From IMG/VR virus record IMGVR_UViG_3300037851_000330, positions 1 through 55,326 of that record: a stretch of DNA of 55,326 bases; one strand, written 5' to 3'. A program made the translations under genes and the position numbers. Numbering within the stretch: position 1 is the first letter of the stretch; every line of letters starts with the position of its first letter. The notes under the pieces are model-generated. The model saw only the letters and a list, made by a program, of their open reading frames with translations. It did no database searches and had not been told where the DNA came from. Positions 11,079 through 28,734 of this stretch are shown piece by piece. Source of the stretch: a virus. Taxonomy: Duplodnaviria; Caudoviricetes.

Positions 11079-11366
11079 TTGCAATATAATAAACATATGA
11101 GCATGGACCGAAACGAAATCCTTCAAAGGATAATAGATGAAGATGGAAGCTGTAGTTGGGGCAACAAGAAAATTTGTGCAAAGTGTCCACTCAGTAAACT
11201 CAAACAAAGACCAGATGGTAATTACTACTCTTGTGTCGAAGCAGTTGGTGTTGACAACATGACAGAAGAAGAAGCAGACGCAAGATATAAAGAGATAGCC
11301 AAAAGGCTGTTAGTTGATGAGGCTATCGATGAGCTATTAGAAGGTAAATCTGATGAAACTCTCTGA
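11079..11366 (+). CDS. Cys-cluster small protein (likely start 11097 or 11103)
   Basis: G.C....C.KCP motif shared with the next gene. Confidence 0.6.
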   Translation: MQYNKHMSMDRNEILQRIIDEDGSCSWGNKKICAKCPLSKLKQRPDGNYYSCVEAVGVDNMTEEEADARYKEIAKRLLVDEAIDELLEGKSDETL

Positions 11367-11598
11367 TAGTAATAAGCTAATTCTAGAAGAAATAGTCGTA
11401 TTAGAAGGCAACTGTCTTAAAAGAGAGCGTTGCGAAAAATGTCCGTTTAAAATGTCATGCCTACCAGAATTCTTAAATACCGCTCCAACTAAAAATCAAC
11501 GTCTCGAAATGGCTTTAGATTTGATAACCCGGGATATAATACTAGAAGATAGTGAGGATTCGCATCCGTTATGGTACACCGAAAAATCAAAATCTTAA
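11353..11598 (+). CDS. Cys-cluster small protein
   Basis: EGNC....CEKCPF...C, paralog-like to 11079. Confidence 0.6.
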   Translation: MKLSDSNKLILEEIVVLEGNCLKRERCEKCPFKMSCLPEFLNTAPTKNQRLEMALDLITRDIILEDSEDSHPLWYTEKSKS

Positions 11599-14111: not shown

Positions 14112-14164
14112 AGTTTAAGGGGAACGGCTCATGGATGAGCTGGGTGCAGTGGGCTATATGCCTA

Positions 14165-14180
14165 CTGACACTGCTACGCC
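14165..14180 (+). repeat. 16-mer CTGACACTGCTACGCC, copy 1
   Basis: Exact copies at 14165, 15165, 15448, 27036. Confidence 0.9.
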
Positions 14181-14340
14181 GATGCCTCATTATGATGCAC
14201 GGCTCAACCGAATCGATAGTTAATCACGACGATAATGAATGTGAGTTGAATGGTTCTTTGACAACTGAATAGTTTGTAAGTTTAACTGAAACGAATAATA
14301 AACATGAGCAATGACGCTCATGATAACAAAAGGAGAAACT

Positions 14341-14859
14341 ATGAACAAATTAACACAACGTGCCGCTGTCTACAACGCTACTAAACAAGTGTTTGAGGAC
14401 GCAGGTCACGACTTCGAAGACGGTATGAACGTTGATGCGACCATCAGCGACAGCATGCGCAAGTCTATCATCGACATCGTGTGCGCCGGTTTCGCTAAAG
14501 GTGAAGTCGAGTTGAAAGACACGCCGTCTAACCGCGAAAAGCTCTCTAACCCAACTAAGTTGCGTGGGTATGTAGGTGGTCTTGTGAGCAACTGGTTTCG
14601 CAAAGACGAACGTCTTAACGGTGACACAAAGTATCAGATCAAAAATCCGGGTTCACGTGCAGGATCGACTGATCCTCAGCTGAAAGCGTTGCGTGCCTTA
14701 GCACAACAGTTCAAAGGCACACCGAAAGAGGCGATCATCAAGTCTCAAATCGAAGCACGCACGACTGCAATCCAAGCTGAGAAAGCGAGCAAAGTGACAG
14801 TCGACATCAGCGCCTTACCGCCTGAGCTTGTTGAGCAACTTGGTCTGAACAAACAGTAA
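14341..14859 (+). CDS. conserved phage protein, paralog family A (copy 1)
   Basis: AAAGGAG RBS; clearly homologous to 24656..25165 and 46517..47026. Confidence 0.8.
   Translation: MNKLTQRAAVYNATKQVFEDAGHDFEDGMNVDATISDSMRKSIIDIVCAGFAKGEVELKDTPSNREKLSNPTKLRGYVGGLVSNWFRKDERLNGDTKYQIKNPGSRAGSTDPQLKALRALAQQFKGTPKEAIIKSQIEARTTAIQAEKASKVTVDISALPPELVEQLGLNKQ
14587..14666 (+). repeat. 80-nt exact direct repeat (second copy 24893..24972)
   Basis: AGCAACTGGTTTCGCAAAGAC...TCACGTGCAGGATC identical in both paralogs. Confidence 0.9.
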
Positions 14860-14869
14860 TGTTGAAATC

Positions 14870-14893
14870 GGTGGGGTTAGCAATGACCCCACC
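14870..14893 (+). terminator. hairpin/terminator after family A copy 1
   Basis: GGTGGGGTTA-GCAA-TGACCCCACC, weak U tract. Confidence 0.55.
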
Positions 14894-14917
14894 TCTTGAA
14901 CATTATAAGGGAGGAAT

Positions 14918-15154
14918 ATGAGTCATTACTGTGATTGTGAGCATTGCACTATAACCAAAGCGAACAAGCGAAAAGACGCGGTCAAAGCTAAGATCTTAAA
15001 AGAAGTGGACAACCATCCTATCTGCATAGCTTTGTATGTCCTACTGTGGTCTAACACTTGGAGCAAAACTGAATCGAACAAGATAAGAGATGAGATCATA
15101 ACTTACAGGAAGAAACATGGTCTGATCCCAGCTAAGAAGAACATCAGTCAGTAG
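14918..15154 (+). CDS. hypothetical protein
   Basis: GGGAGG RBS; N-terminal CDCEHC. Confidence 0.6.
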   Translation: MSHYCDCEHCTITKANKRKDAVKAKILKEVDNHPICIALYVLLWSNTWSKTESNKIRDEIITYRKKHGLIPAKKNISQ

Positions 15155-15164
15155 GCCCCACCTA

Positions 15165-15180
15165 CTGACACTGCTACGCC
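15165..15180 (+). repeat. 16-mer CTGACACTGCTACGCC, copy 2
   Basis: Exact repeat; preceded by hairpin GTCAGTAGG/CCTACTGAC. Confidence 0.9.
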
Positions 15181-15210
15181 TACACTACCCACTCATACCG
15201 AATCGATGAT

Positions 15211-15435
15211 TACACATCACCACACGGTGATACTACGGAACTCCCTAAAGAGTTGTCCGGTGGATAGGAGTGTACACCTAAAATGTCTCCCAGGAAGTAA
15301 GTTCCTAAAACAAACAAGGCGGAACCAGTCCGCAGGTGGAATACCAACCCACCATTGAATCCTACAACTAAATAGGGGCGACCGACCAGACGTGGGCGAG
15401 TCATTAAGGGAATAGCTAAAACTATTCCCTTTCTC
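15211..15435 (+). ncRNA. candidate multi-hairpin non-coding RNA
   Basis: Follows promoter motif at 15197; at least 7 consecutive hairpins, four with CTAAA-containing loops; no credible ORF. Confidence 0.55.
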
Positions 15436-15447
15436 ATTTCCTAAACA

Positions 15448-15463
15448 CTGACACTGCTACGCC
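15448..15463 (+). repeat. 16-mer CTGACACTGCTACGCC, copy 3
   Basis: Exact repeat. Confidence 0.9.
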
Positions 15464-15543
15464 CTAGGGACTAGGGGACACGCACACTATACCGAATCGA
15501 TCTATACTATTGGCCAATCGCGTGGCCACATATAGACCACGAC

Positions 15544-15615
15544 GTGAGCCGAATCGTAAGCTCGAGTGTGAGCGGTTTGATAAGTCAAAGCGTGAGCCAT
15601 AATGTGAGCCGAGCC
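15544..15615 (+). repeat. 12-bp-periodic RTRAGY iteron-like array (6 units)
   Basis: GTGAGC/GTAAGC/GTGAGC/ATAAGT/GTGAGC/GTGAGC at 15544, 15556, 15568, 15580, 15592, 15604. Confidence 0.7.
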
Positions 15616-15881
15616 ACACCCCCACCCTTTCGCACACATTTGGGCTTGTGGAAACATGTGATTTCAATGGCTTACACCACTTACCACACTCAAAACACGA
15701 GTGATTCACGGTGAGGCACTAGAGGTGCTTTGGTGGGGTTTGATGGGGTCTGGAAGAGTATAGATAGAGATATGCCTAGGTATATGTCTATTGCGCTTAG
15801 GTATAGCCTCTATTTAGTGATTCTCCCTCTCCCCTTATGCTGTACTGAATCGACATGTTTGTTGAATAGGAGGGATTCTAT

Positions 15882-16157
15882 ATGATTAGTAAACAACTTA
15901 GTAATTTGTCTGTTTTGTCGAATTGCTTCTTGTATGAAGGAAAAGTATACGAGAGGTTATTTAAAGACGCTGATGATAGAGCGAGATTAAGGAAGAAGTA
16001 TCCTAAGTATGGCTTCAAGCATAAGTATCGATTTTTTATGAGCAGCGATGACTATGACTACGTAACAGATAAGAAGCTTGTTCGTAAGCTGAATAAGTTT
16101 ATGCAAGACGAGAGTAAGTGGCTCAAAACATATGTGAAATGGCTTCAACATGGGTAG
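15882..16157 (+). CDS. hypothetical protein
   Basis: AGGAGG RBS, promoter motif at 15844. Confidence 0.65.
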   Translation: MISKQLSNLSVLSNCFLYEGKVYERLFKDADDRARLRKKYPKYGFKHKYRFFMSSDDYDYVTDKKLVRKLNKFMQDESKWLKTYVKWLQHG

Positions 16158-16413
16158 TAGTAGCATCATGAATACATGCTTTTATTGTAAGGCGCAATGG
16201 GGTAAGTGTAAGTGCACAGAGGGTGATGAAGTGCTATTTGTAAGTTGGAGCGGAACCAATATCACCAATCCTGGGGTCTCTGAGTGTGGTCGCTTCTATG
16301 TTAACCCTTTACATCACTACGGAACAAAATTCACTGAATGGTTGTCTTATTGTGTGCACTCTGGTAATAAGCATAAATTTGCTCAACCTTTTATTGAAAG
16401 GAGATTCTTATGA
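16150..16413 (+). CDS. hypothetical Cys-rich protein
   Basis: Coupled ORF. Confidence 0.55.
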   Translation: MGSSSIMNTCFYCKAQWGKCKCTEGDEVLFVSWSGTNITNPGVSECGRFYVNPLHHYGTKFTEWLSYCVHSGNKHKFAQPFIERRFL

Positions 16414-16958
16414 TATCGAAGGATTGGACTTTAAATTTTGAGGTTAATGGGTTAAAGGTGAAAGCTCATATTCCACCATATGTCTGGATGTATAGGCAAG
16501 GTGCTATTGAAGAGGTCTGCGTGGTGGATGAGAGAGGCTGTGAGTTGCGAGTTAATACTAAACTAAACATGAACACTAACGATCCGGCTGAACTTGAGGC
16601 ATTGGTTTCTGCTCATACCTATCCTACAAGTGTATGTAAGACATGTAATAGTCCTATGCTTGCACATAGCAGCCACTATCGTACTCCTAATGAGTGCGAG
16701 ACTTGCTGTAAAGAACGCATAAGTGCAGAGTTTAATAAACTAAATGAAAGAGAGCGCTTCAAAGATAAAGTAAGAGATACAGCACATAAAGCTCAAGGTT
16801 ATAAGTTTAAGGCAATAATGAATGTGCATCCTGTTAGTGGTGATGATTTTCAACTCGTTCAATACTCATTTGAGAAACCATCACATAAAGACATAAAAGC
16901 TGTACTTATTGACAACAAATCTACTGTGTTCGATGACTATCGAATAGATGTTTTATAG
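16410..16958 (+). CDS. hypothetical protein with zinc-finger-like CxxC pairs
   Basis: AAGGAG RBS; CKTC...CETCC. Confidence 0.65.
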   Translation: MISKDWTLNFEVNGLKVKAHIPPYVWMYRQGAIEEVCVVDERGCELRVNTKLNMNTNDPAELEALVSAHTYPTSVCKTCNSPMLAHSSHYRTPNECETCCKERISAEFNKLNERERFKDKVRDTAHKAQGYKFKAIMNVHPVSGDDFQLVQYSFEKPSHKDIKAVLIDNKSTVFDDYRIDVL

Positions 16959-16966
16959 GAGGAAAC

Positions 16967-17467
16967 ATGAATTCAAGCATAAATCAAGATCTTAGAAAAC
17001 TTATAGTTGAACAAATGGCTAAATTTGAAGCAGATTTAAGTAGCGATACTCCTTGGAAAGAATGGTATCGTGATAATCACATGAGATTCACCAACATGAC
17101 TGATAAAGAGCTCATCGAGCACGCTGACCTGCATTTTGTCGGCAATATAGCTGACGAGTTTGATAAAAAAATCGAAGAAGCAAAAGTTGAAATGGCTTTT
17201 GAGGAAGTAGTTCTTAACGCTAAACCGCCTATGTCAAGAGATGAGGCGATGGCTGTGTTAGGGTTCTTCATTGGTCGCATTGGTGGAGGTTATCACACAG
17301 ATAATCAGCTAAAGGACTATATAAATGGTGCCACGCGCCTACCCACATTCTCCAAAGATGAACTTGATAGATACCAGCCATTACATGATGAGATGTTTAA
17401 GGTGTTAGGTAACGATTCTTATGTTATGGGTTTGACGATATTTGATAAGGCATTAGGTATCAAATGA
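16967..17467 (+). CDS. hypothetical protein (N-terminal part resembles 37242 and 23394)
   Basis: AGGAGG RBS; TDKELI motif, internal FEEVVL. Confidence 0.65.
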   Translation: MNSSINQDLRKLIVEQMAKFEADLSSDTPWKEWYRDNHMRFTNMTDKELIEHADLHFVGNIADEFDKKIEEAKVEMAFEEVVLNAKPPMSRDEAMAVLGFFIGRIGGGYHTDNQLKDYINGATRLPTFSKDELDRYQPLHDEMFKVLGNDSYVMGLTIFDKALGIK

Positions 17468-17895
17468 GAACAACATCAAAAGAATTAGATAGATTAGCTC
17501 GTAATTTTAGAAAAGCGATGGCTATCGAAGCTAAGAATAGAATGAAGTGCAAAAAGCACAAAAAGGGTAATAAGGTCTTATCAGAGAGATGTCCATGGGT
17601 TAGATACAAAGATCTTCCTAAAGAACTTAAAAATAAGCCTATTGGCAAGATTTTTAAGAATAAAGATGGCTTTGATACTAAGATTACAGTGTTTCATTGG
17701 TGTAACGAATGTGAACACCATGTTGGTAGTTTAAAGAAATGTCAATCGTGTGGCAATAAGGATTTAATAAAGGTTTATGACTGGCATACATGTCGTTATT
17801 ATGCAAACAGTTGTCCAGTAAATCGCTGGGGTTGTTCTATTCATTACAGAACTGTATCGTGTCCACCAACATGCACATGCGATAGGTGTTATTAG
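17464..17895 (+). CDS. hypothetical Cys-rich zinc-binding protein
   Basis: Multiple CxxC motifs. Confidence 0.6.
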   Translation: MRTTSKELDRLARNFRKAMAIEAKNRMKCKKHKKGNKVLSERCPWVRYKDLPKELKNKPIGKIFKNKDGFDTKITVFHWCNECEHHVGSLKKCQSCGNKDLIKVYDWHTCRYYANSCPVNRWGCSIHYRTVSCPPTCTCDRCY

Positions 17896-17903
17896 GAGTA
17901 ATT

Positions 17904-18194
17904 GTGGCAAAAATAGATGACCATGAACAATATAATGACACATTAAATGCAGCAATAGATAAACTAAGAGCTGAAGAGAATTTTGAACCATACGCATTAG
18001 AGAATTGCTGCGAAGATGGTGGATGGAGCTACGATACTTGTATCAGAGTGTTGAATTGCTTAAGTATAGAAGAAACAATGAATGTGTACGACTTCGTATT
18101 TAACGATGAAATGCATTTCACTGATGAATGGCGAAAAGCATTAAAAGACACGATTGATCACTATCATGTTGAAAAAGCTATCTTTGGGGAGTAA
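17904..18194 (+). CDS. hypothetical protein with C-terminal tag
   Basis: GTG start after AGGAG; ends VEKAIFGE. Confidence 0.65.
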   Translation: MAKIDDHEQYNDTLNAAIDKLRAEENFEPYALENCCEDGGWSYDTCIRVLNCLSIEETMNVYDFVFNDEMHFTDEWRKALKDTIDHYHVEKAIFGE

Positions 18195-18196
18195 TT

Positions 18197-18412
18197 ATGA
18201 AGCATAAAATAGTTATAGAGTTTGAAACAGATGACATTTTAAACGCAGATCAACAAAACACTATCGAATTGATGGCTAATGATGCATTCGTACAGCTTGA
18301 AACATTAAACGAAGTTGAATATGATAGCAGAGTTTCATTTAAGAACGCTAAATATACATACTCTAATGATCTTGAAGAAAAGGTCGATAAGGTCATATTG
18401 GAGGAAGAATGA
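18197..18412 (+). CDS. hypothetical protein with C-terminal tag
   Basis: Ends VDKVILEEE. Confidence 0.65.
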   Translation: MKHKIVIEFETDDILNADQQNTIELMANDAFVQLETLNEVEYDSRVSFKNAKYTYSNDLEEKVDKVILEEE

Positions 18413-18677
18413 TATTTGCTTTATTGTTATCTATTTTTGCTCTTGCTGTGGTATCAGAAATAGTGCTTCAAAAATGGGGCATGAATGCACACTTATTATC
18501 AATAGGTGTTTCAGTTTTTATCTTATATCTTATTCTTTTAAGCTATAGGAACTAATATGAAGAAAATAACTAAAGCTTATTTAAAAAGAGAAATTGCTAA
18601 GATTAAAAAAGCTCTAACATTTGCTGAAAAACCAAAACAGAAACCGATTCGACATAAACAAACGAAGAGGGACAAAT

Positions 18678-18830
18678 ATGTATCAACTTAAAAATAGCAC
18701 TATTATTAAAGCTCATAATGAACACGCAAAATCGCAAAGAAAAGAGCTAATATATACAGTGCTTTCTGTTGTTGGAACTCTCGCATTGGTTTTTGCTGCA
18801 ATAAATGTATTTGTAGGTGTGTTGCAATGA
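18678..18830 (+). CDS. small membrane protein
   Basis: GAGG RBS, promoter motif at 18643, C-terminal hydrophobic helix. Confidence 0.55.
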   Translation: MYQLKNSTIIKAHNEHAKSQRKELIYTVLSVVGTLALVFAAINVFVGVLQ

Positions 18831-19360
18831 AATATCCCTTATTTGTAAAAGGTAAAATTACAAATGACGTTTTTGTGAGAGGTTTCACTCATCCTCAAGG
18901 TATATACGCTCAATATTGGCATTTTGATAAGTTGCACATGTATATCAATCCAGTTACACTTGAATATAAAGAAACTAAACTTTCTTTTGAATGTTTAAGA
19001 CAATTAACTTATTTATTAACATTTAAGACCTTAAAAGAAGGTCGGAGGCTTTATGAGTTTATTAAAACAGTTTGCTGGCCAATTGTTGTGGATACTTTCT
19101 TTAAGTATCGTTCAAGGTTTTATCATTTTCTTCGTGTGCTTTTATTTAGCATTCTTAATTTCATCTGGTGGCTAATTCCGCCTTTCTTAAAGAGATATAG
19201 AAAGAACATATGGTGTGGTAGGCATCAACATGTATTCTTTTGCATCTCTTACATTAAGGATTTTAGAGCTAATGCTGTATATCTAGTGTTATTTGGTTAT
19301 GAGTTTTGGATAGGTGAACAAAGACCTACATTTCTCAACAAAAAACAAAATAACGATTAA
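18827..19360 (+). CDS. hypothetical protein
   Basis: 177 aa coupled ORF. Confidence 0.55.
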   Translation: MKYPLFVKGKITNDVFVRGFTHPQGIYAQYWHFDKLHMYINPVTLEYKETKLSFECLRQLTYLLTFKTLKEGRRLYEFIKTVCWPIVVDTFFKYRSRFYHFLRVLLFSILNFIWWLIPPFLKRYRKNIWCGRHQHVFFCISYIKDFRANAVYLVLFGYEFWIGEQRPTFLNKKQNND

Positions 19361-19395
19361 CTTTAACGTAATCGATATTTACACATGGAGGAAGT

Positions 19396-19716
19396 ATGGA
19401 CGCTAAACAAAGTGTGTTCTTTCAAAAAGTATACAATGTTATGCAAGAGATGGAGCAATATATATCAGACTCAGATGAGTATGTTGCCATCATGGAAGCT
19501 GTGATAGCGGAAGCGTCTCATAGAAAAGACGTGTGTATTGACTCACATATCGCATTTGAGGTAAATGGTAAAACATTTAAAAAGTTTGATGAAGTTATTA
19601 GTTGGGCTTGGAAAGAGCACAAAATTGCATATGAGCCAGAAACAGATGCTCCTCTTTCTTTAGCGGAACAACGTAAAGTATGTAAAGATTTAGACCAAAT
19701 GATAAAGGAGGGATAA
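19396..19716 (+). CDS. hypothetical protein
   Basis: GGAGG RBS, promoter variant at 19366. Confidence 0.65.
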   Translation: MDAKQSVFFQKVYNVMQEMEQYISDSDEYVAIMEAVIAEASHRKDVCIDSHIAFEVNGKTFKKFDEVISWAWKEHKIAYEPETDAPLSLAEQRKVCKDLDQMIKEG

Positions 19717-19717
19717 T

Positions 19718-19927
19718 GTGGAAAGAGAAGATAAAAAGAGTTCGTTTGAGATCTCTGTTGCAGCACTATCGCGCTCCATTAACGAGTATAACACGATTGC
19801 AGCCGTATGTAATAGCCATATTGGTGCATGCAGCGGCTGCGCTCTTAGCAATGGGTGCAAACTAAAAGTCTTAAAGCAAGATGAAGAGAAGACAAATACG
19901 TTTGTAGTTAATAATTTAAGTCATTAG
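19718..19927 (+). CDS. Cys-cluster small protein
   Basis: C....GACSGC.....C. Confidence 0.55.
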   Translation: MEREDKKSSFEISVAALSRSINEYNTIAAVCNSHIGACSGCALSNGCKLKVLKQDEEKTNTFVVNNLSH

Positions 19928-20021
19928 TGTAGATAGCTGTAAGTCGCCAAGTAATAGTTTGCGAAAGCTTATACTATTCAGCCGCCAAAAAACAGCTATT
20001 TACTTTTTAAAAGGAGAATGT

Positions 20022-20288
20022 ATGTTCGTAATTGCAGCTCGTGCGCTTGAAGCACCTAAAAGAGTATATGTAAGAGATGAACAAGAGCTTAGAAAGCTTG
20101 CTCAATCATATCCTTATATCTACAGAGTTGGTACAGATCAAGTTCTGGAGATAACAACAGTTGGTTTAGAAAGTAATGTTATTGTGTGGCGAGACGTTAA
20201 GGATATTAGCGTACAAGACGCAATTAAAGATGACATTATTGATGGTGTTGAAGTCGACACTGACAAATCTTACGAAAAAACTCAATAG
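20022..20288 (+). CDS. hypothetical protein
   Basis: AAGGAG RBS before ATG 20022. Confidence 0.6.
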   Translation: MFVIAARALEAPKRVYVRDEQELRKLAQSYPYIYRVGTDQVLEITTVGLESNVIVWRDVKDISVQDAIKDDIIDGVEVDTDKSYEKTQ

Positions 20289-20297
20289 GGGAGAAAA

Positions 20298-21137
20298 ATG
20301 GGTAGATCAGTAAACTATATCGGCTTCGCACGAATTGGCAACCAATTTGGTCCTGCTCAAGGTAATGGTGAATATTGCAAAACATTGCCTGCAGGTCACT
20401 ATAAACTTGAGTACGATCATTACAACGACATATTGTTGTTAAACAGATTCGAGCCAAAACTCGATGACATTCTTAACATAGGAAGTAAAGAATTTAACGA
20501 AGTGTTAAATAATGCTAAGAAGTTTCTTTCTCCTGAAACAGAAGATATTTTTAAGCAAAATGGCTATTTAATGAAGCGATCATATTTCCTATATGGTCCT
20601 CCGGGAACTGGAAAATCTGTTTTGTGTACTAAGGTTTGCAATATCGCAGTTGAGAAAAAGAATGCTATTTCTGTCTATCCAGATGGTCATCAAGCGTTAG
20701 AGCGATTTGTTGAGGTAATCAACGATACAGACCCAAATCGCTTTCTTGCTATTACTCTCGAAGAGTTTGATTCTTCTTTAAGACAAGAAGGTGATCATAA
20801 CTGGACAACTCTTCTTGATGGTCAGTTTCAAGCAGGAAACAGAATATTAGTTGCTTCAACTAATAATATCGGAGCTATTCCATCTCGCTTATTAAGACCC
20901 GGTCGCTTCTCTCGCCTATATGAGATTCCTGCCCTAACCGAAGAGACAAAGCGAGAGTATTTGGTACAAAAAAGTGTACCTACTGAAACAATCGAGCGAA
21001 TAATGAAATACTCTGAATCTCTCACTATCGATGAGATGAAAGAGATCGTTCAGAACGTTGTAATCTTAGGTGAAGACCTTGATTCAACAGTAAAAGCTAT
21101 TACTGCTGCTAAAAAGTTGGGATATGACGCTGACTAA
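20298..21137 (+). CDS. AAA+ ATPase
   Basis: Walker A GPPGTGKS, Walker B-like ITLEEFD, STN sensor, LLRPGRF second region of homology. Confidence 0.9.
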   Translation: MGRSVNYIGFARIGNQFGPAQGNGEYCKTLPAGHYKLEYDHYNDILLLNRFEPKLDDILNIGSKEFNEVLNNAKKFLSPETEDIFKQNGYLMKRSYFLYGPPGTGKSVLCTKVCNIAVEKKNAISVYPDGHQALERFVEVINDTDPNRFLAITLEEFDSSLRQEGDHNWTTLLDGQFQAGNRILVASTNNIGAIPSRLLRPGRFSRLYEIPALTEETKREYLVQKSVPTETIERIMKYSESLTIDEMKEIVQNVVILGEDLDSTVKAITAAKKLGYDAD

Positions 21138-21468
21138 AGAACTGCTTTTAATCATTGGTTCTCTTATAAAAAAGAGAATAGATGAATGTCAACTTGAAGA
21201 AGACGCCTTTTGGGAGATGGATAGATCAACTAGACATATATCCAGAAGGCGTTTTATGCTCCTTGAGATAAACAAGGAATGTATTGTATTGGTTTGTTTT
21301 TTTGATGAAGGTCAAGATAAATGTGCTTGGCTAAAAACTAAAGATAATTGGATTTTAGTTTACACACAGCATACAAACCATATTGGCGCTACTACTACAG
21401 GTGATTTTGTAAAGCATCTAAATGATGCATATACAGCTTTGTCTTTTGATAAAGTATTAAAGGAATAG
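21124..21468 (+). CDS. hypothetical protein with C-terminal tag variant
   Basis: Ends LSFDKVLKE. Confidence 0.6.
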   Translation: MTLTKELLLIIGSLIKKRIDECQLEEDAFWEMDRSTRHISRRRFMLLEINKECIVLVCFFDEGQDKCAWLKTKDNWILVYTQHTNHIGATTTGDFVKHLNDAYTALSFDKVLKE

Positions 21469-21469
21469 T

Positions 21470-21778
21470 ATGGCTTTTAATCGTAAGCATACACCAATTT
21501 ATCCAAGAATTGATGAAGGTTACGTAGCGCCTGAAGGTTTCTTCATGGTGATAGAAGATTATTGTACGTATCCTTTGATGGTTGAATACTTAAACGATGG
21601 TGGCAGTAGACCAAGGTATTACCATAAGATAGATGAAAAATGGGAAGTAAGAACTGAGGTGAGTAGAAAAGATTCCAACCCTCTTGTTAGAGAACCCCTT
21701 ATCACAGATGAATTTCTTAATAAGGTTTATCAGTATTTAGCTGATCAATTGGCAGAAAAGGCAATCTTCGATGAGTAG
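21470..21778 (+). CDS. hypothetical protein with C-terminal tag
   Basis: Ends LAEKAIFDE. Confidence 0.65.
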   Translation: MAFNRKHTPIYPRIDEGYVAPEGFFMVIEDYCTYPLMVEYLNDGGSRPRYYHKIDEKWEVRTEVSRKDSNPLVREPLITDEFLNKVYQYLADQLAEKAIFDE

Positions 21779-22163
21779 AAGAAAAAGCCAGCATCAATTA
21801 GATAACTACACTGAAGTCTTTCAAGAAAAAACAGATGACGATCATGCTATGTGGTATATAACTATTACAAGACATCTGCCAAGTAAACAAAGAACATATT
21901 TTAAACTGTGGTTTAAGAACCCAAGAGAACCTGAAAAAAGAGATAAAAGGGAACCAGATGAATATGTTTGGTATTACAGAATAAACTGGAAACAGGATAG
22001 ATTAGAAAACCATACAGGCATTAAAGAAGGAAAAGACACATTTAATAGCGGATATTGGCGCACTGTTTTAGACTCAGAATCACCATTTAATTGGACTAAA
22101 GATGAAGTGATGCCTAAAATACAATCCATTCTAATGGATTATGAAATGGGCTTACATACATAA
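21771..22163 (+). CDS. hypothetical protein
   Basis: Coupled ORF, 130 aa. Confidence 0.6.
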   Translation: MSRRKSQHQLDNYTEVFQEKTDDDHAMWYITITRHLPSKQRTYFKLWFKNPREPEKRDKREPDEYVWYYRINWKQDRLENHTGIKEGKDTFNSGYWRTVLDSESPFNWTKDEVMPKIQSILMDYEMGLHT

Positions 22164-22207
22164 TACTCTACCGATTCGATATTTAAACATAACAATAGGA
22201 GGGTTTT

Positions 22208-22465
22208 ATGAAATTCAATAACTTTAAGTCTGCACAGCATTCGTCAAATTATAAGAACTTGCAATTGAAGAAGCTTAATAAGAAGCAACCTGTAAAGGTT
22301 TATTCTGAAGAAGAGAAGAAAGCTTTAGCTGCTCAAATGGGTGTTGGTACAGTGCCATCTCGAGTACCAGAGAAATTAGTAAAAGAAGCAAAACTTGAAG
22401 AAAACGTTGACTTATCAGTACTTGATCCTGAGTTGTTAAAACAATTAGGCGTTCAAGTTAAGTAA
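22208..22465 (+). CDS. hypothetical protein with VDxSxLxPEL C-terminal module
   Basis: AGGAGG RBS, promoter at 22170; ends VDLSVLDPELLKQLGV. Confidence 0.7.
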   Translation: MKFNNFKSAQHSSNYKNLQLKKLNKKQPVKVYSEEEKKALAAQMGVGTVPSRVPEKLVKEAKLEENVDLSVLDPELLKQLGVQVK

Positions 22466-22466
22466 T

Positions 22467-22745
22467 ATGAAACACGCTGTACAAAAAGCCATGCAGAGAC
22501 ATGGGGTCAACATAAATATGTCTGACCTATTGTCTCTGCGCAAAAACATCGAACATTTTAAGAACATCAAAGCATGGTTCTATAAGAACGGTCATCCAAC
22601 TCATACAGAGAAGTGGATTGTTAACTATAAGAATGAACTTTGGTATTTAGTTTACGACCCACGATCAAGAAAGATAGTAACTATATTAGACGATGCGCAC
22701 CCTGAGATAGTGAAGAGAGTTGTAGGTATTATCAGTGGCAAATAA
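22467..22745 (+). CDS. hypothetical protein (H-A..K..QR...IVT pattern, RelE/BrnT-like fold possible)
   Basis: HAVQKAMQRHG N-terminus and LVYD....KIVTIL C-terminal strands. Confidence 0.5.
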   Translation: MKHAVQKAMQRHGVNINMSDLLSLRKNIEHFKNIKAWFYKNGHPTHTEKWIVNYKNELWYLVYDPRSRKIVTILDDAHPEIVKRVVGIISGK

Positions 22746-23112
22746 AGGTATGCGCTCTAAATCAAGGCATGATGGCAAATTTAGATTTGCTATAAAGAAA
22801 ATGCATATTTACTATGCAACTAAAGTTAATCCTCGTTGGACTTATAAGGAACTATTGATCAGCATTTGCGAGCGATTAACTAATAAGCAGCTGTCTTGGA
22901 TAATTTCAAGTAAAGATAAATACTATGAACCTATAGTTGAACATGCTAAAACAGAACTATTGGAGCGTGAACTTCTTTTAAAACCAATGATACAAGAGAA
23001 TATGGTTGAGGTCTATGACCACTACGTTCTCACAAAGAAAAAAGAAGCATCTTTATTTAGAGAATTAACAAGCGGAGATAAGGTTTTCTATGAGTCAGAA
23101 GAATACACTTGA
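22735..23112 (+). CDS. hypothetical protein
   Basis: Internal ELLERELLL resembles the 51030-51969 family. Confidence 0.6.
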   Translation: MANKGMRSKSRHDGKFRFAIKKMHIYYATKVNPRWTYKELLISICERLTNKQLSWIISSKDKYYEPIVEHAKTELLERELLLKPMIQENMVEVYDHYVLTKKKEASLFRELTSGDKVFYESEEYT

Positions 23113-23401
23113 AAGACCTAAAAGAGACCCTGACTATGTTTCAGAGCGCTGTGTAGAGTATTGGTGGGCGCCTGAATGGGTTCGAGACTTAAAAGGAACT
23201 ATATGTAAGATTAAGGTCGTTAAGAACGGCAACGATGCTGACCTACATATGGTATCTAAGTCTGGTAATCACTCTTACATCAAAGGAAGAATACAGAAGG
23301 CTTTTAAACAGTGGCATACAGATCGTCAGATAGACTACATTATATTAGGTGTAGACGAAGAAGAATTATGGGTCGCTGACTGGGAAAAGAAAGATGAATA
23401 G
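23090..23401 (+). CDS. hypothetical protein with near-terminal tag
   Basis: QIDYIILG near the C-terminus. Confidence 0.6.
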   Translation: MSQKNTLERPKRDPDYVSERCVEYWWAPEWVRDLKGTICKIKVVKNGNDADLHMVSKSGNHSYIKGRIQKAFKQWHTDRQIDYIILGVDEEELWVADWEKKDE

Positions 23402-23654
23402 GTTTCTACCAGATGAATTAAGGCAACGCATCATTGATATAAACTGTAGTGATGATAACCTACTTGGTAGAGATTTATCTAAAGCAATATGTGAAAGATG
23501 GTCTGATGAAAAGCTAATTAAAGCTTTTGAAGAAAAGATGCATGTTTATGGTATTGCTGGTCTTACAGAACATTTAACTTATAAAACAATATATGTTCCT
23601 TTAATGGAAGATATAGCAGAATTCATGATCTTACAAGAAAAGAGAGATGTATGA
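23394..23654 (+). CDS. hypothetical protein with C-terminal tag
   Basis: Ends IAEFMILQEKRDV. Confidence 0.6.
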   Translation: MNRFLPDELRQRIIDINCSDDNLLGRDLSKAICERWSDEKLIKAFEEKMHVYGIAGLTEHLTYKTIYVPLMEDIAEFMILQEKRDV

Positions 23655-23808
23655 GAGACATTTATGTATGGTTTTCAATAGTTTATTTTGTCTTGATACT
23701 TGGTTTTGGAGGATATCACATTTACCAGCAAAACAAAATAATTTCGTTACTTGAAAAACTAAACGAACCTTACCGAATCGAATGTTTAGATAACGAGGAG
23801 AACTGTTT

Positions 23809-23979
23809 ATGAAAGTATTTTGCAAAATAGAAATGAAGTATGGATCTAAGATGGAGTTTTGGTGTGAAGATGAATTACAAGCTGCCACCAGAATCAAAGA
23901 GTTAAAAGAGAAGGGTGTAGAGATTATCAAGACTGATATCTCTCAACCTAAACCTGAAAATACAGACAACTTACACTAA
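23809..23979 (+). CDS. small hypothetical protein (below ORF-track cutoff)
   Basis: GAGGAG RBS, promoter at 23772; MKVFCKIEMKYG... Confidence 0.55.
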   Translation: MKVFCKIEMKYGSKMEFWCEDELQAATRIKELKEKGVEIIKTDISQPKPENTDNLH

Positions 23980-23987
23980 GGAGAAAC

Positions 23988-24125
23988 ATGGACGAATATC
24001 AAGTGTATCTATCTAACGACGAGTTAAGAAATCTTTTAGACGAAGATCCTACTTTTTGGCCGGGTTATGAAGAGTGGCTTGATGATGTTCAAGCAACAGA
24101 GGAGATATTCCTTGGAGAGAACTAG
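23988..24125 (+). CDS. 45-aa protein with C-terminal tag (below ORF-track cutoff)
   Basis: AAGGAG RBS; MDEYQVYLSNDELR...ATEEIFLGEN. Confidence 0.65.
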   Translation: MDEYQVYLSNDELRNLLDEDPTFWPGYEEWLDDVQATEEIFLGEN

Positions 24126-24289
24126 AATTCTTTTAGCATTAACTAATAAAATAGTTGCTCTTGAACAAGAGCAGCAAATTTATGATTTCCATAGTAAGCC
24201 TTGGTGTCTAATAGATGACGAAATTACTCAAACCAAGAAAACTATTCAAGATGTCATGAACTCTAAATGTCCTTTAATAAGGGGTTAAT

Positions 24290-24583
24290 ATGATTTGGAA
24301 AGCTAAAACACCTAACTATTGGGTTTCTACAGATCAAGGCGAATTACAGACACAGGTTATATTTATAGCCGATAAAGGTTATGCCGCTTGGCGAGTTCAA
24401 GATAACGGCAAGACAGTTGAAAAAGGTAGAGCAGATAGTATATTAACTGGTATGAACATTTCTTGTACAGCACTTTTAAAGTATAAAGCTAATAAAAATA
24501 AGATAGATGCAAAGCTATCTAAAGTAGAACACGAAGACTTTGTTGGCTTACCTGAGTTTATCTCGACCGAATCGAATTTTTAA
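24290..24583 (+). CDS. hypothetical protein
   Basis: AGGGG RBS. Confidence 0.6.
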   Translation: MIWKAKTPNYWVSTDQGELQTQVIFIADKGYAAWRVQDNGKTVEKGRADSILTGMNISCTALLKYKANKNKIDAKLSKVEHEDFVGLPEFISTESNF

Positions 24584-24655
24584 CAACGGGTGGTTGTGTC
24601 TAAAATGATTTAGTCCACCACTTGAAAAACAAAAACATTCTCTAAAGGAGGGAAT

Positions 24656-25165
24656 ATGAAACAAAGAGATGCAGTTTATGCTGCGGTAACAACTGTCCTT
24701 AAGGACGCCGGTAAACAGTTCGAAGACGGTATGAATGTACTGGAGTCGATCACAGATTCTGAGCGTGATGCAGTTCATGCAATCATCGTTCAGGGTTTTA
24801 AAGCCGGAAAGATTTCGTTAGAACAAACGGAGTCAAACAAAAAGAAAATGGCTTCAGACTCTGAAATGAACAAGTACGTTTCAGGTCTTATCAGCAACTG
24901 GTTTCGCAAAGACGAACGTCTTAACGGTGACACAAAGTATCAGATCAAAAATCCGGGTTCACGTGCAGGATCTTCTGATCCTCAGTTGAAAGCTCTTCGT
25001 CAGTTGTACACTCAGTTCAAAGGTACACCTAAAGAAGCTATCTTGAAAACTCAAATCGAAGCTCGTTCTTCAGCTTTACAAGCTGAAAAAGCGAAGCAAG
25101 TTAAAGTTGACATCTCAGCACTTCCTGCTGAGTTAGTTGCTCAACTTGGCTTAGATAAAGAGTAA
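24656..25165 (+). CDS. conserved phage protein, paralog family A (copy 2)
   Basis: AAGGAGG RBS; homologous to 14341..14859. Confidence 0.8.
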   Translation: MKQRDAVYAAVTTVLKDAGKQFEDGMNVLESITDSERDAVHAIIVQGFKAGKISLEQTESNKKKMASDSEMNKYVSGLISNWFRKDERLNGDTKYQIKNPGSRAGSSDPQLKALRQLYTQFKGTPKEAILKTQIEARSSALQAEKAKQVKVDISALPAELVAQLGLDKE

Positions 25166-25193
25166 TCAATAATCAAAGCAAAGAGTTTCTCCT

Positions 25194-25220
25194 AAGGCGG
25201 ACTAATAGTCCGCCTTTTTT
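25194..25220 (+). terminator. intrinsic terminator
   Basis: AAGGCGGACT-AAT-AGTCCGCCTT followed by T run. Confidence 0.85.
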
Positions 25221-25265
25221 CTTTATTGCTAAACTGAATCGACATTTAATGAACGAGGGGGTCTT

Positions 25266-26360
25266 ATGATTTTACTCACTATGTTGTTAATACCTACGCT
25301 TGTAGCGTTTGGGTTTTTTATATTTGGTGGTAAAAAGGTCACATTGTGGGAATTCTTTGGACAGATGGTTGTTCAAGCAATCTTCATGTCTCTAATTGTT
25401 TTTGGAATGTCGCGAATGAATACAAGTGACGTAGAGATAATCAGTGGAGTTGTGACCAATAAGATAAAAGATAGAGTATCCTGTCGACACTCGTACTCAT
25501 GTAATTGTAGAGAGATATGTAGTGGTTCTGGTAATAATAGATCTTGCTATACTCATTGCGATACTTGTTATGAGCATAGCTATGATATAGATTGGGATGT
25601 TCATACTACCATTGGTACTTTTTCTATAGATACTATAGATCGTCAAGGATTACAAGAACCTCCAAGGTGGACTGCTGTAAGGATAGGTGAACCAGTAGCT
25701 ACAACTCATTGGTATGAGAACTATATTAAGGGTTCACCTGATAGTTTATTCAGGCATCAAGGTCTCGTAGAGAAATATGCTAAAGTACTTCCTAAATATC
25801 CATCAAACGTGTACGACTATTGGCATGTAGATAGACTTGTTACTGTAGGTGTATCGTTACCTGATGCGAAGCTGTGGAACCAAGAACTGCAGCGAATCAA
25901 TGGGTTTATAGGACCACGTAAGAAAGCTAACATAGTAGTCGTTGTTGTTAAGAATCAGCCGAGTGATTACTTCAAAGCACTTGAACAGCATTGGATTGGT
26001 TCTAAGAAGAATGACATTGTCGCTGTAATCAGTGTTGATGATTCGTATAATGTGCAGTGGGCAGAAACAATGGCGTGGACAAAAGATAAGATGGTTGAGG
26101 TCGTTGTATCAGATCATATAAGAAGGATAGGTAAACTTGACAGAGAGCAGATATTAGATAATATCGCTAAGTCTGTTGATGCCTACTACGTCAGAAAACC
26201 AATGAAAGAGTTCGAGTACTTAAAATCCTCTGTTACTCCTACGTTTGGACAGTGGATGTTTGCAATGGTGTTTGGCTTTATACTAAGCGTTGGCTTAGGT
26301 ATATTTATGATTAAAAACGATATAGATGACGAAGATCGTCATAGAAAGGTTTGGTACTAA
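25266..26360 (+). CDS. membrane protein with Cys-rich periplasmic region (partner of LemA-like gene)
   Basis: Two N-terminal and one C-terminal TM helices; C.HSY.CNC...C..C motif; L...W.G.KKND motif. Confidence 0.65.
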
Positions 26361-26926
26361 TGGGAACAGGATTAAAGGTAACACTTGGAGTGTTAGGAAT
26401 GATTGTACTCTTGCTCGTTGTGGGAGTAACATCAGTGATAGGTATTAACAACGATTGCGTAACACAGGAGTCTGGTATTGTTGCGCAATATAAGCAGAAC
26501 CAGAATAACTATGATAACTACATCAAGAAGCTAAAAGAGACTGCGCAAGTCCCTGACATGTACACAGAAGATCTTAAGAAGCTTTATAAAGAAGCAATCA
26601 CAGGTCGTTATGGTGCTGAAGGTTCTAAAGCTATGTTTCAGTTCTTAAAAGAACAAAATCCTACCTTAGATGCATCGCTGTACACAAAGATTCAGCAGAT
26701 CATCGAGTCAGGGCGTAACAGCTTTGAAGCAGATCAAAAGACTTTATTAGACAAGAAGAGGGTGTATGAGTTAACACTTAAGCAGTTCCCTTCTAATCTA
26801 ATCACAGGTGTACTCGGTTTTCCTAAGATCGACTTAGCTAAGTATGATATCGTTACTTCGCAAGAAACAGAAGATGCTTTTGAGAAGAAGAAAGCAGATC
26901 CTGTTAATCTAAGAGATAATAAATAA
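26360..26926 (+). CDS. LemA-like membrane-anchored protein
   Basis: N-terminal TM, E.AQVP, GRYG, QEQNP-like, FPSN...LGFP motifs. Confidence 0.65.
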
Positions 26927-26986
26927 CTGGAAGGTTCAGCGCGTAGCACCGATACGGCACAAGCGGGTTCTCGAGCAGGTTATTGT

Positions 26987-27012
26987 AGGCAGACTTCGGT
27001 CTGCCTTTTTTA
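26987..27012 (+). terminator. intrinsic terminator
   Basis: AGGCAGAC-TTCG-GTCTGCCT followed by T run. Confidence 0.85.
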
Positions 27013-27035
27013 TTTCAGTTGCGCCCACCACGCAG

Positions 27036-27051
27036 CTGACACTGCTACGCC
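27036..27051 (+). repeat. 16-mer CTGACACTGCTACGCC, copy 4
   Basis: Exact repeat; preceded by hairpin TCAGTTGCG/CGCAGCTGA. Confidence 0.9.
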
Positions 27052-27086
27052 GGCGCCGCTTACCGCCAATCGCTGTACCGATACGA

Positions 27087-27857
27087 TTGTTGTCTATGAT
27101 GAGAGAACGTAAACTAAAGGGAACAGGTACGATACGCTTGATCGTTGTTAAGCACAACGATATGAATTATGGTGGAATATATCGCAACACTAACCCTGAC
27201 ACGATCACTATTATTAGTGCCACGTTCTTTCCACATGGCTTCATATGTCACAAGACTTGGAACGATGAGGTATCGAGACCTGAGTATACAGAGGATATGA
27301 TTCGTGAAGAATCAGAGGTTGTTGCTTCTCATTTAGAAGATCAACCAAATGGATTCTACGAGATAATAGCGGGTCTAGGTTATACGTCTTGGAGAACCTC
27401 ATATGAATATGAAGAATATGAGCATGAGTGGGATTTACTTGATCCTAAGATTCAAAGCATTAAGTATGAACATGCAGTTAAGTTAGATCAATATGATGTT
27501 ATACGCGGTGAAACAATTGACTTAATGACAAGACAAACTCTTCATAAAGAACAAAGACCTGATTACGCTGATACTGCAATTAACCAGTTCATGTCTCGTA
27601 AGGAGATTAAAGCCAGACATGCTTTTGTTCTTACAAAGCTTTATGACAACTACACATCAACTAGACTATATGAATATACAAGGATGACAGAGAAAGAACT
27701 AGATGATTACATACATATGTCTATGCTTACTATGGACTCTGAATCCATGATGAGCGATTTACAGGAGAAAAGACATAAACTGGCGTTAATAGTAGATGAG
27801 GATGTTAATCACTGTGAAGAATTAAGGCATAGCTTAATGGACCAAGAAGACGAATAA
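27087..27857 (+). CDS. hypothetical protein (start likely 27096/27099)
   Basis: 256 aa ORF behind promoter motif at 27077. Confidence 0.65.
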   Translation: MLSMMRERKLKGTGTIRLIVVKHNDMNYGGIYRNTNPDTITIISATFFPHGFICHKTWNDEVSRPEYTEDMIREESEVVASHLEDQPNGFYEIIAGLGYTSWRTSYEYEEYEHEWDLLDPKIQSIKYEHAVKLDQYDVIRGETIDLMTRQTLHKEQRPDYADTAINQFMSRKEIKARHAFVLTKLYDNYTSTRLYEYTRMTEKELDDYIHMSMLTMDSESMMSDLQEKRHKLALIVDEDVNHCEELRHSLMDQEDE

Positions 27858-28726: not shown

Positions 28727-28734
28727 GGTGGTAT

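Follow-up and report, generated by a model that had tools for sequence, protein, structure and literature searches.

The 16-nt word CTGACACTGCTACGCC (hereafter the 16-mer) is carried by about 55 related uncultured IMG/VR contigs that are otherwise unalignable outside genes, and it is invariant across them, whereas the promoter-like core that adjoins it drifts between lineages. We tentatively read the 16-mer as double-stranded DNA recognised by a factor, conserved in the clade and probably encoded by the phages, that would act on the adjacent promoter, within cassettes composed of a terminator, the site and the promoter. The window analysed here, a stretch of 55,326 nt, represents about one third of the genome of its source phage, an uncultured myovirus of roughly 165 kb. 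Hardly anything is known of how large uncultured phages control transcription, and the 16-mer provides a precise and testable handle on it.

Results

Copies of the 16-mer in the window

The four exact copies reported in the earlier note were all found, at 14165, 15165, 15448 and 27036 on the + strand. Its description of their surroundings also held, as every copy lies at or just after a gene or RNA end and 16-27 nt upstream of an ACCGAWWCGAT motif (measured gaps of 26, 16, 27 and 25 nt). With up to three mismatches, 0.27 matches are expected in the window, and five matches were reached in 0 of 100 shuffles. The features around the four copies are:

14138..14175, + strand: hairpin upstream of copy 1 (MFE -21.4 kcal/mol, z -3.44), its 3' arm overlapping the first bases of the 16-mer
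14165..14180, + strand: 16-mer copy 1, exact, 54 nt past the stop of ORF 13905-14111
14207..14217, + strand: promoter-like core ACCGAATCGAT, putatively serving gene 14341-14859
15147..15169, + strand: hairpin upstream of copy 2 (9-bp stem, z -3.66), overlapping the 16-mer by 5 nt and including the stop codon of ORF 14918-15154
15165..15180, + strand: 16-mer copy 2, exact
15197..15207, + strand: promoter-like core ACCGAATCGAT, after which comes a non-coding stretch that folds well
15406..15441, + strand: terminator-like hairpin with a T-rich tail (z -4.36), ending 6 nt before copy 3
15448..15463, + strand: 16-mer copy 3, exact
15491..15501, + strand: promoter-like core ACCGAATCGAT, directed into a non-coding region that carries repeats
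26987..27014, + strand: intrinsic terminator-like hairpin and T-run, following gene 26351-26926
27015..27039, + strand: second hairpin, upstream of copy 4 (z -3.91), its 3' arm overlapping the 16-mer by 4 nt
27036..27051, + strand: 16-mer copy 4, exact
27077..27087, + strand: promoter-like core ACCGATACGAT, preceding ORF 27087-27857

Conservation and orientation across the clade

Across the clade, the 16-mer has the consensus N-Y-GACAC-Y-G-Y-TACGC-N, and its degenerate core occurs in 167 unique copies in 971,484 nt of clade loci and window, where 0.058 are expected. In an earlier set of 751,948 nt, 87 unique copies were exact (0.0004 expected), 40 had one mismatch (0.017 expected) and 16 had two (0.38 expected). 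Mismatches in this set were confined to positions 1, 2, 8, 10, 12, 15 and 16, with C, T, G or A at position 1 and T or C at position 2. Thirteen positions are invariant, and the changes inside the word (positions 2, 8 and 10) all replace one pyrimidine by the other. Among the carrier genomes, tail sheaths are only 52-65% identical at the amino-acid level and conserved genes 65-84% identical in nucleotides, GC content runs from 35 to 54%, and the sequence flanking the 16-mer holds almost no information. Such strictness at 13 positions exceeds that of most protein sites and counts against a protein-bound site; base pairing would fit it too.

The closest cultured relative of the window phage, Myxococcus phage Mx1, is distant, and the 16-mer is absent from it. 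In 596 Gb of bacterial genomes the word was found in 103 stretches, with about 278 expected, and misbinned phage contigs account for only 4 of these 103 loci. Since the word is at chance level in bacteria, its reader is not a conserved host sequence partner.

Copies are co-oriented with genes throughout and sit early in the + strand block, where the ORFs have few homologs or none. Within genomes the orientation is uniform, with per-genome forward/reverse counts of 8/0, 0/7, 7/3, 4/0 and 1/5. Near-copies also occur within ORFs of the complete relative G001 and of G003, on either strand relative to the gene, and an accessory site of a promoter does not explain these, which is a point against our reading.

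The promoter-like core and its spacing

ACCGAWWCGAT appears to behave as a phage promoter. With at most one mismatch it has 20 matches in the window, where 1.77 are expected, and 19 of these read along the + strand. Most lie 20-40 nt upstream of start codons, and one lies 37 nt before a tRNA-Asn. In G001 all 24 matches are on the + strand, 23 of them inside the + strand gene block. The core differs by lineage, being ACCGAWTCGAT here and of a CCGAnnCTAT type in relatives, next to an unchanged 16-mer. The narrow pattern places a core within 120 nt downstream of 61 of 119 copies, where 0.065 cores are expected per 120-nt stretch, and leaves about half of the copies without one; with a broader pattern, a core is present for 31 of 35 copies in new contigs. 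The 16-mer and its downstream core always have the same orientation.

Distances from the 16-mer to the core range from 19 to 94 nt, with favoured values of 22-23, 30-33, 40-44, 51-53, 64 and 75-76 nt. Among 69 non-redundant spacers, the highest Rayleigh R, 0.43, falls at a period of 10.5 bp (p = 5e-5 against a null of +/-6-nt jitter), and these spacings are those predicted if a factor sits on one helix face. In a second, independent set, consisting of 22 spacers from 18 loci in contigs not found with the exact word, R(10.5) was 0.38 (p = 0.047), with higher R at a 9-bp period and no peak at 10.5. The two main spacing clusters, at about 21-23 and 29-32 nt, are separated by 8-9 nt rather than 10.5. 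Helical phasing fits the main set, and the second set only marginally.

The first six bases of the 16-mer resemble a sigma-70 -35 hexamer, but positions 1-2 vary, so that this likeness is not maintained. No -10-like element was found at any fixed distance from the 16-mer, and 89 copies showed no TAnnnT-like signal at 17 +/- 1 nt downstream of the first hexamer. Sigma-70-like sites were rarer than in shuffles (37 against 56.8 +/- 6.3). A sigma-70 promoter was rejected, given the varying positions 1-2 of the TTGACA-like -35 and the absence of a -10 element 16-18 bp downstream.

Hairpins around the 16-mer

The 3' arm of a hairpin runs into the 16-mer at three of the four window copies, as the earlier note had it, and hairpins lie upstream of all four (z -3.4 to -4.4). 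Covariation, which it had also proposed, was not borne out: the stems in the window are unrelated sequences that show no compensatory changes in one homologous structure, and across the clade the stem end ranges from 9 nt inside the 16-mer to 29 nt before it, so these do not form one homologous covarying structure. They are independent terminator-like stems at variable distance. Perfect stems of at least 6 bp ending between -30 and +10 of the 16-mer accompany 71 of 108 copies, whereas they were found at 57 of 384 random positions; 37 of the 108 copies have no such stem, and in 22 the stem overlaps the word. In some lineages a short specific hairpin recurs right before the word, and in some, cassettes of about 60-70 nt form near-identical repeats.

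Only 17 of the 71 hairpins have at least four T in the next 8 nt, and the 16-mer itself is not T-rich; an intrinsic terminator as the whole explanation was rejected on these counts. In several relatives the hairpin is an ordinary terminator and the 16-mer starts directly after its T-run, so that it should lie past the 3' end of the RNA, an argument for a role at the level of DNA.

Two further structural claims did not survive. A second hairpin had been described after three copies, yet the spacers fold no better than shuffles (z -0.45 to +0.42), and behind the promoter motif a clear hairpin is seen only at copy 3 (z -2.6), with a weak one at copy 2 (z -1.3) and none at copies 1 and 4. The 8-nt complement at 26941 does not exceed chance, as about 1.7 matches are expected per 8-mer in the window. 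The window contains no complement of the 16-mer of at least 9 nt, the only candidates for pairing in G001 are further same-sense partial copies, and no Rfam family was found in 13200-16000.

Polymerases and candidate regulators

A search for a T7-like RNA polymerase (PF00940) matched none of five genomes, with the control also silent, and there was no RNA polymerase among 10 large ORFs of G001 that were annotated, out of its 37 of at least 300 aa. Transcription therefore probably proceeds via the host polymerase and accessory factors, and carriers of the word appear to rely on the host enzyme. Two kinds of conserved genes encode candidate regulators:

11079..11598, + strand: a pair of small four-cysteine paralogs (ORFs 11079-11366 and 11353-11598), which open the + strand block
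14341..14859, + strand: gene of the F170 family (~170 aa); across the clade, no other conserved gene neighbours the 16-mer as often

F170 paralogs are located at 24656-25165 and 46481-47026 in the window. Homologs of the four-cysteine proteins are present in 18 and 15 loci with an invariant cysteine pattern. Neither the F170 family nor the four-cysteine proteins match a known family or fold, which speaks against the main reading.

Discussion

Among the roles suggested in the earlier note, an activator site beside a promoter fits best, given that the copies are co-oriented with, close to and at preferred distances from the core, whereas its framing as a structured single-stranded DNA or RNA signal finds no support, given the variable hairpin position, the stems missing from 37 of 108 copies, the relatives in which the 16-mer follows an ordinary terminator, and the lack of a pairing partner in the sequences searched. 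Recombination, nicking and DNA-entry roles are minor candidates. In the cassettes we envisage, a hairpin or intrinsic terminator would end the upstream transcription unit, the 16-mer would be recognised by a putative sequence-specific factor, and the lineage-specific phage promoter core would be used by the host RNA polymerase. At the core promoter, the factor on the 16-mer would touch the polymerase complex and tune how strongly, or when, some of the early-block promoters fire. Such cassettes would lie between small, fast-changing early genes and non-coding RNAs, like the PeSL cassettes of T4-type phages. That the multi-copy F170 proteins or the four-cysteine proteins in particular read the invariant 13-nt core, as parts of an undescribed phage system re-targeting the host RNA polymerase from phased upstream sites, is a doubtful guess. 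A bolder candidate would have the word as a strand-specific nick or loading point that acts as a sequence-defined transcription enhancer.

Alternatively, the 16-mer may itself be a promoter of a second temporal class, used by the host polymerase with a phage-encoded or phage-modified specificity factor, which we regard as unlikely. Transcription would start a few bases downstream, and many early units would have tandem promoters. The word is non-palindromic, rich in information and strictly oriented, like phage-specific promoters, it comes after terminators, and 2 nt after it a purine is favoured (69 of 89 copies) and T avoided (4 of 89). In G001 a variant copy (5398) and the ribosome-binding site that lies 8 nt after it have no core between them, several last-in-cluster copies lead straight into non-coding structured or repeat regions, again without a core, and three of five genomes have weak sigma region-4-like ORFs. 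However, there is no -10-like element at a fixed distance, the likeness to a -35 hexamer is lost at the variable positions 1-2, and no phage RNA polymerase was found in the genomes searched; moreover, a core follows most copies by 5-45 nt at preferred spacings, which two independent promoters would not need.

It is improbable that hairpin and 16-mer act together as RNA or single-stranded DNA, for instance in termination or antitermination, RNA processing or stability, or as a hairpin-type promoter or priming site, read through base pairing or by a single-strand-binding factor. The enrichment of stems over random positions (71 of 108 versus 57 of 384, with the stem overlapping the word in 22 copies), the four significant window hairpins and the lineage-specific short hairpin repeated directly before the word agree with such a unit, and exchange of pyrimidine for pyrimidine is what wobble-tolerant pairing allows. 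Set against this are a hairpin-to-16-mer distance of -9 to +29 with 37 of 108 copies lacking a hairpin, the position of the word past the T-run of canonical terminators, a window without a complement of at least 9 nt and only same-sense partial copies in G001, and the lack of enrichment in bacterial genomes and of an Rfam family in 13200-16000. We give equally little credence to the 16-mer as primarily a site of DNA transactions, either a crossover for site-specific or homologous cassette exchange or a strand-specific nick site of the kind reported in some other phages. The word does flank early genes that are small and poorly conserved, as well as paralogs from a single gene family, with uniform orientation within genomes, the near-identical cassettes of 60-70 nt would be good recombination substrates, and the extra near-copies inside ORFs disregard gene direction. 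Yet no recombinase or nicking enzyme is tied to the word, compared contig pairs were either 100% identical or at most 84%, the contigs aligned to the window, which are short fragments, showed no joints at 16-mers, and the preferred spacing to the promoter would be left unexplained.

Whichever factor reads it, the 16-mer offers a way to locate the early, fast-evolving gene block in metagenomic contigs and to tell its orientation, and it points to conserved candidate regulators without a known fold. Should its reader be found, this would be a new sequence-specific DNA-binding module with an asymmetric site of 13-16 bp. The cassettes may also account for early-gene exchange among such phages.

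Comparison with known systems

N4-like phages have hairpin promoters that are read by a virion RNA polymerase. Here too, a hairpin stands beside conserved bases at early transcription units, but loops are 3-10 nt, stems and their position are variable, a third of copies have none, and no phage RNA polymerase was detected in the genomes searched. An N4-type hairpin promoter was rejected on the stem ends (-9 to +29 from the 16-mer) and the 37 of 108 copies without a stem.

At T4 middle promoters, sigma is appropriated by MotA and AsiA, and the MotA box lies at a fixed distance from the -10 element. Like this box, the 16-mer is a phage-specific, non-palindromic upstream element that would replace a -35 before a -10-like element, and in the closest-spaced class (about 22 nt) its TGCTAC would be placed close to -30, assuming that -7 is the end of the core; unlike it, its spacing to the core varies from 19 to 94 nt. 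The MotA and AsiA Pfam families (PF09158, PF09010) matched none of five genomes, with control genomes equally silent. Activator sites at several phased positions are known from CRP class I and class II promoters, from the asymmetric boxes of monomeric MarA/SoxS-type regulators and from the P2/P4 Ogr/Delta late promoters. The 16-mer would share with these an oriented or helix-face-dependent arrangement, placed upstream of the core at several discrete distances, and, with Ogr, small Cys-rich proteins, here encoded by the first early genes. It differs in being far more invariant and in that no regulator homology was found, and activation is putative here.

The stem-loop cassettes of T4-type phages, PeSL and PmSL (promoter-early and promoter-middle stem-loops), are reportedly also treated by Arbiol et al. 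2010 (PMC2839356). Homologous cassette exchange is said to have been proposed for PeSLs. Comeau, Arbiol and Krisch 2014 (PMC4122927) describe PeSL cassettes as a stem-loop before a promoter, repeated many times in hyperplastic regions of small variable genes, with sigma-70-like promoters (-35, N17, -10) that differ between phage pairs, and also mention the TGCTT Mot box of T4 middle promoters. The phages studied here are not T4-like and have no -10 at the standard distance, the core being a different, lineage-variable motif. As in PeSLs, a stem-loop or terminator stands just before the promoter (at 71 of 108 copies and all four window copies), and the cassettes are repeated, well conserved within a genome and concentrated among small variable genes; unlike in PeSLs, an extra, clade-invariant 16-mer is placed between stem-loop and promoter.

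A conserved 16-mer across related phages

The exact 16-mer occurs on the plus strand of the window at 14165, 15165, 15448, and 27036, as first noticed from the sequence alone. Allowing up to three mismatches added a single match against 0.27 expected, at 43556-43571 (−), where 14 of 16 positions are identical and the match runs antisense within a trypsin-like protease ORF (43300-44160). Among the IMG/VR contigs, the exact word was found in 66 stretches on 47 contigs, seven of which (L007, L013, L041, L044, L045, L049, and L056) were left out as chance matches because they hold single copies within long ORFs and carry no clade marker. A further 15 contigs with variant copies were recovered through a conserved neighbouring protein family, bringing the clade to 167 unique copies in 971,484 nt, where 0.058 would be expected. 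These numbers, in the window and in the clade, rule out a chance origin; the 16-mer is a real, strongly selected, and clade-wide element. Since several contigs are identical duplicates, about 34 distinct genomes were estimated among the first 40 contigs.

Variation within the word is confined mostly to positions 1 (C, T, G, or A), 2 (T or C), 8 (T or C), 10 (C or T), and 16 (any base), with positions 12 and 15 altered solely in atypical copies. Some variants are fixed by lineage, all copies beginning, for example, with T, G, or CC, and flank preferences are weak (C at −3, with purines favoured at −1 and 2 nt past the word). The carriers share 52–65% identity in the sheath protein and 65–84% nucleotide identity in conserved genes, and their GC content ranges from 35 to 54%. 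In the Myxococcus phage Mx1 the 16-mer did not rise above the control level, and the F170 family of ~170-aa proteins that often adjoin the word was not found, in a search run without a positive control. Bacterial and archaeal genomes (596 Gb) held 103 word stretches, fewer than the ~278 computed for chance, which rules out a conserved host sequence or RNA as the partner of the word; the four of these 103 loci with the F170 marker gene are misbinned phage contigs. String searches of the literature with the word, its complement, and sub-strings, over an incomplete set of journals, returned unrelated papers only.

Genomic context and orientation

As the entire IMG/VR record of 55,326 bases, the window has an estimated completeness of about 33%. 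It encodes a contractile tail sheath and other virion proteins, metabolic enzymes (NAD-salvage enzymes, ribonucleotide reductase, thymidylate synthase, and DNA ligase), four tRNAs, and an RNase P RNA, with virion genes on the minus strand at 1-11019 and nearly all genes on the plus strand from 11079 onward. Mx1 is the sole cultured relative found by the sheath (32% identity), and the cultured-phage collection gave no match to 13300-16300 (blastn) or to F170 (tblastn).

In the five relative genomes G001–G005, of which G001 is complete, forward/reverse counts of the word at up to two mismatches were 8/0, 0/7, 7/3, 4/0, and 1/5, and reversed-pattern controls gave 0 matches. Canonical copies are concentrated in the first 12–15 kb of the early block. 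ORF-internal near-copies, some of them antisense, were also seen in G001 and G003, including one at the same place in the dCMP-deaminase-like gene of both; G003 has three more copies at 15/16 identity, and its number of ORF-internal near-copies is beyond chance.

Several other features of these genomes were recorded. The NAD-salvage pair at 29409-32050 (+) consists of a cytidylyltransferase/Nudix fusion that resembles nicotinamide-nucleotide adenylyltransferase, followed by a nicotinamide phosphoribosyltransferase, and a further Nudix-domain protein lies among the virion genes (8626-10161, −). On either side of the protease and ligase genes lies an HNH/endonuclease VII-like gene (42191-42733, −, and 45551-46150, +); the two may be free-standing homing endonucleases. 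The RNase P RNA is a full-length bacterial type A molecule (52346-52698, +; 141.8 bits, model positions 1-367) that sits within the tRNA cluster between tRNA-Phe and tRNA-Arg; another is encoded in G005 (178 bits), none in G001–G003, and nothing evident on phage-encoded RNase P RNA appeared in the accessible part of the literature. Among the products of G001 are a DNA polymerase of 1343 aa that includes an exonuclease region (59753-63784) and a GroEL-like chaperonin (69788-71470).

Hairpins and cassette structure

Throughout the clade the order of elements is constant and in one orientation, running from a hairpin to the word, then to a promoter-like core, and finally to a gene or non-coding RNA. 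The earlier note had described a covarying hairpin at the 16-mer, and a hairpin does lie upstream of all four window copies (z −3.4 to −4.4), its 3′ arm overlapping the word in three, but the hairpins do not form one covarying structure. Perfect stems of at least 6 bp ending within −30 to +10 of the word accompany 71 of 108 copies versus 57 of 384 random positions. G002 and G003 have a textbook terminator as their hairpin, its T-run reaching exactly to the word; other lineages have a short GC-rich stem that lacks a T-run and abuts or overlaps it. Stem ends range from −9 to +29 relative to the word, 22 stems overlap it, and a T-run follows just 17; given this variability, the stems are a regular companion of the word and not a single structure with compensatory changes. 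Some lineages repeat the entire ~60–70-nt cassette almost identically, like the promoter-early stem-loops (PeSLs) of T4-type phages.

Two smaller claims about pairing were not borne out. A further hairpin had been reported after three copies; the spacers between the 16-mer and the downstream motif do not fold better than shuffles, and past the motif a clear hairpin is present at copy 3 only. A complement of 8 nt, noted at 26941, is no more than chance would give. A search for a second conserved element in the spacer found CCAC within 14 nt for 25 of the 163 copies; control windows gave 7 and 9 per 163, a difference too weak to call. An Rfam search of 13200-16000 yielded just two sub-threshold rows.

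Non-coding units occur near the copies. The stretch from the copy-2 core to the terminator before copy 3 (15205-15447, +) is non-coding, folds well (z −3.08), matches no Rfam family, and is a candidate small RNA of ~235 nt; similar short ORF-less units lie between consecutive 16-mers in G001. The unit after copy 3 starts with a ~380-nt non-coding region, in which GTGAGCC/GTGAGCG occurs four times at 15544-15610 (+), spaced 12–25 nt apart. Relatives have short repeats of their own at the equivalent place, in G001 (contig L072, 7379-7700; CTGTGGGG/GCCCCAC five times) and G004 (contig L074, 1378-1480), and in the contig of one relative 66 nt are skipped and 24 nt are missing within the repeat region at 15488-15591. 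The region may serve as a replication origin or form a structured RNA.

The downstream promoter-like core

The motif ACCGAWWCGAT lies 26, 16, 27, and 25 nt downstream of the four window copies, in agreement with the earlier note. With at most one mismatch it matches 20 times in the window, where 1.77 matches would be expected; 19 of the 20 are on the plus strand, and most lie 20–40 nt ahead of start codons, with one 37 nt ahead of tRNA-Asn. All 24 core matches in G001 are on the plus strand, 23 of them within the plus-strand block (121.8–166 kb and 1–24 kb), and none is oriented toward the minus-strand structural and replication block. Judged by its sequence context, the motif is most plausibly a phage promoter. 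The distance from core to ribosome-binding site is small (8–9 nt in the tightest cases), so the start point would be no more than a few bases from the motif end and the motif would act as an extended −10-like element.

A core of the CCGAnnC[GT]A[TA] type follows within 120 nt in 61 of 119 copies, where 0.065 cores are expected per 120-nt stretch, and with a broader pattern a core accompanies 31 of the 35 copies from further contigs. The core varies by lineage (ACCGAWTCGAT, ACAGACTCGAT, CCGAnnCTAT, and CTGAnCCTAA), whereas the word is constant. The word stands at only 5–6 of 24 cores in G001 and at 4 of ~17 in the window, so that only some of the promoters are marked by it.

The −10 element of a canonical sigma-70 promoter is absent at the 16-mer, which rules out that assignment, and sigma-70-like sites are rarer than in shuffles. 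Searches for a T7-type RNA polymerase (PF00940, five genomes) and for MotA and AsiA gave no matches, with control genomes likewise silent, and no RNA polymerase was among the 10 annotated of the 37 G001 ORFs of at least 300 aa. Matches to sigma region 4 were sub-threshold only; a 170-aa ORF near the packaging genes of G001 (46063-46575) has a weak sigma region-4-like helix-turn-helix.

Possible helical phasing of the word and the core

Distances from the word start to the core cluster at 22–23, 30–33, 40–44, 51–53, 64, and 75–76 nt. For 69 spacers, with similar ones collapsed, the Rayleigh R was 0.43 with a peak at the 10.5-bp period (p = 5e-5, against a null in which every distance was jittered by ±6 nt). 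The 22 spacers of 18 loci from contigs not found via the exact word gave an R of 0.38 (p = 0.047), without a distinct peak at 10.5. These data give moderate support to a requirement for the word and the core to occupy matching faces of the double helix, which favours a protein on duplex DNA touching the promoter complex.

Candidate partner proteins

Two protein families were considered as readers of the word.

Window genes of the candidate partner families
14341-14859 (+): F170 family protein, ~170 aa
24656-25165 (+): F170 paralog
46481-47026 (+): F170 paralog
11079-11366 (+): four-cysteine protein, first gene of the plus-strand block
11353-11598 (+): four-cysteine paralog, overlapping the preceding gene

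F170 was found in 51 loci of an earlier set of 89, and 44 of 52 F170-centred loci have at least one word copy no more than 4 kb away; such copies are invariably on the strand of the F170 gene and often lie 20–140 nt past its stop codon. The family is a frequent, non-obligatory neighbour: obligatory adjacency was ruled out, F170 ending at most 200 nt upstream at 28 of 109 sites and starting at most 250 nt downstream at 15 of 103. It belongs to no Pfam or PHROG family, and all 120 listed of its 204 metagenomic homologs are unnamed or "hypothetical". The protein is all-alpha with an invariant KNPGSRAG-type loop, and its structure model is confident (pLDDT 91). Foldseek returned nothing at E ≤ 0.001, the top VIA Z (5.6) is at noise level, and residues 1–96 gave weak winged-helix-like rows in VIA.

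The four-cysteine proteins, whose cysteines are invariant, are conserved in 18 and 15 loci, the second with the pattern C-x6-C-x2-C-x5-C, and matched no family or fold, including with the model of Z2, one of the two (pLDDT 80). A sigma-70-like site lies ahead of their genes at 11061-11090. Either F170 or the four-cysteine proteins could conceivably read the word.

Possible functions and comparison with known systems

Our tentative preference, held at somewhat below even odds, is to see the 16-mer as an upstream site recognised by a conserved and probably phage-encoded factor that would act on the phage promoter beside it; the site would be housed in a terminator/site/promoter cassette. That the 16-mer itself represents a separate promoter class seems unlikely. 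An RNA or single-strand signal formed by the 16-mer and its hairpin is improbable: a complement of at least 9 nt is absent from the window, the search in G001 found nothing but additional same-sense partial copies, and the variable position of the hairpin also speaks against it. We give just as little credence to a recombination or nick site; the contigs from four DNA runs placed on 11000-29000, all short fragments, have no joints at the 16-mers.

Among known systems, an upstream recognition site within such a cassette is closest to the PeSL and promoter-middle stem-loop (PmSL) cassettes of T4-type phages. The layout is alike (PMC4122927), although the promoter type differs from that of the cassettes found here.
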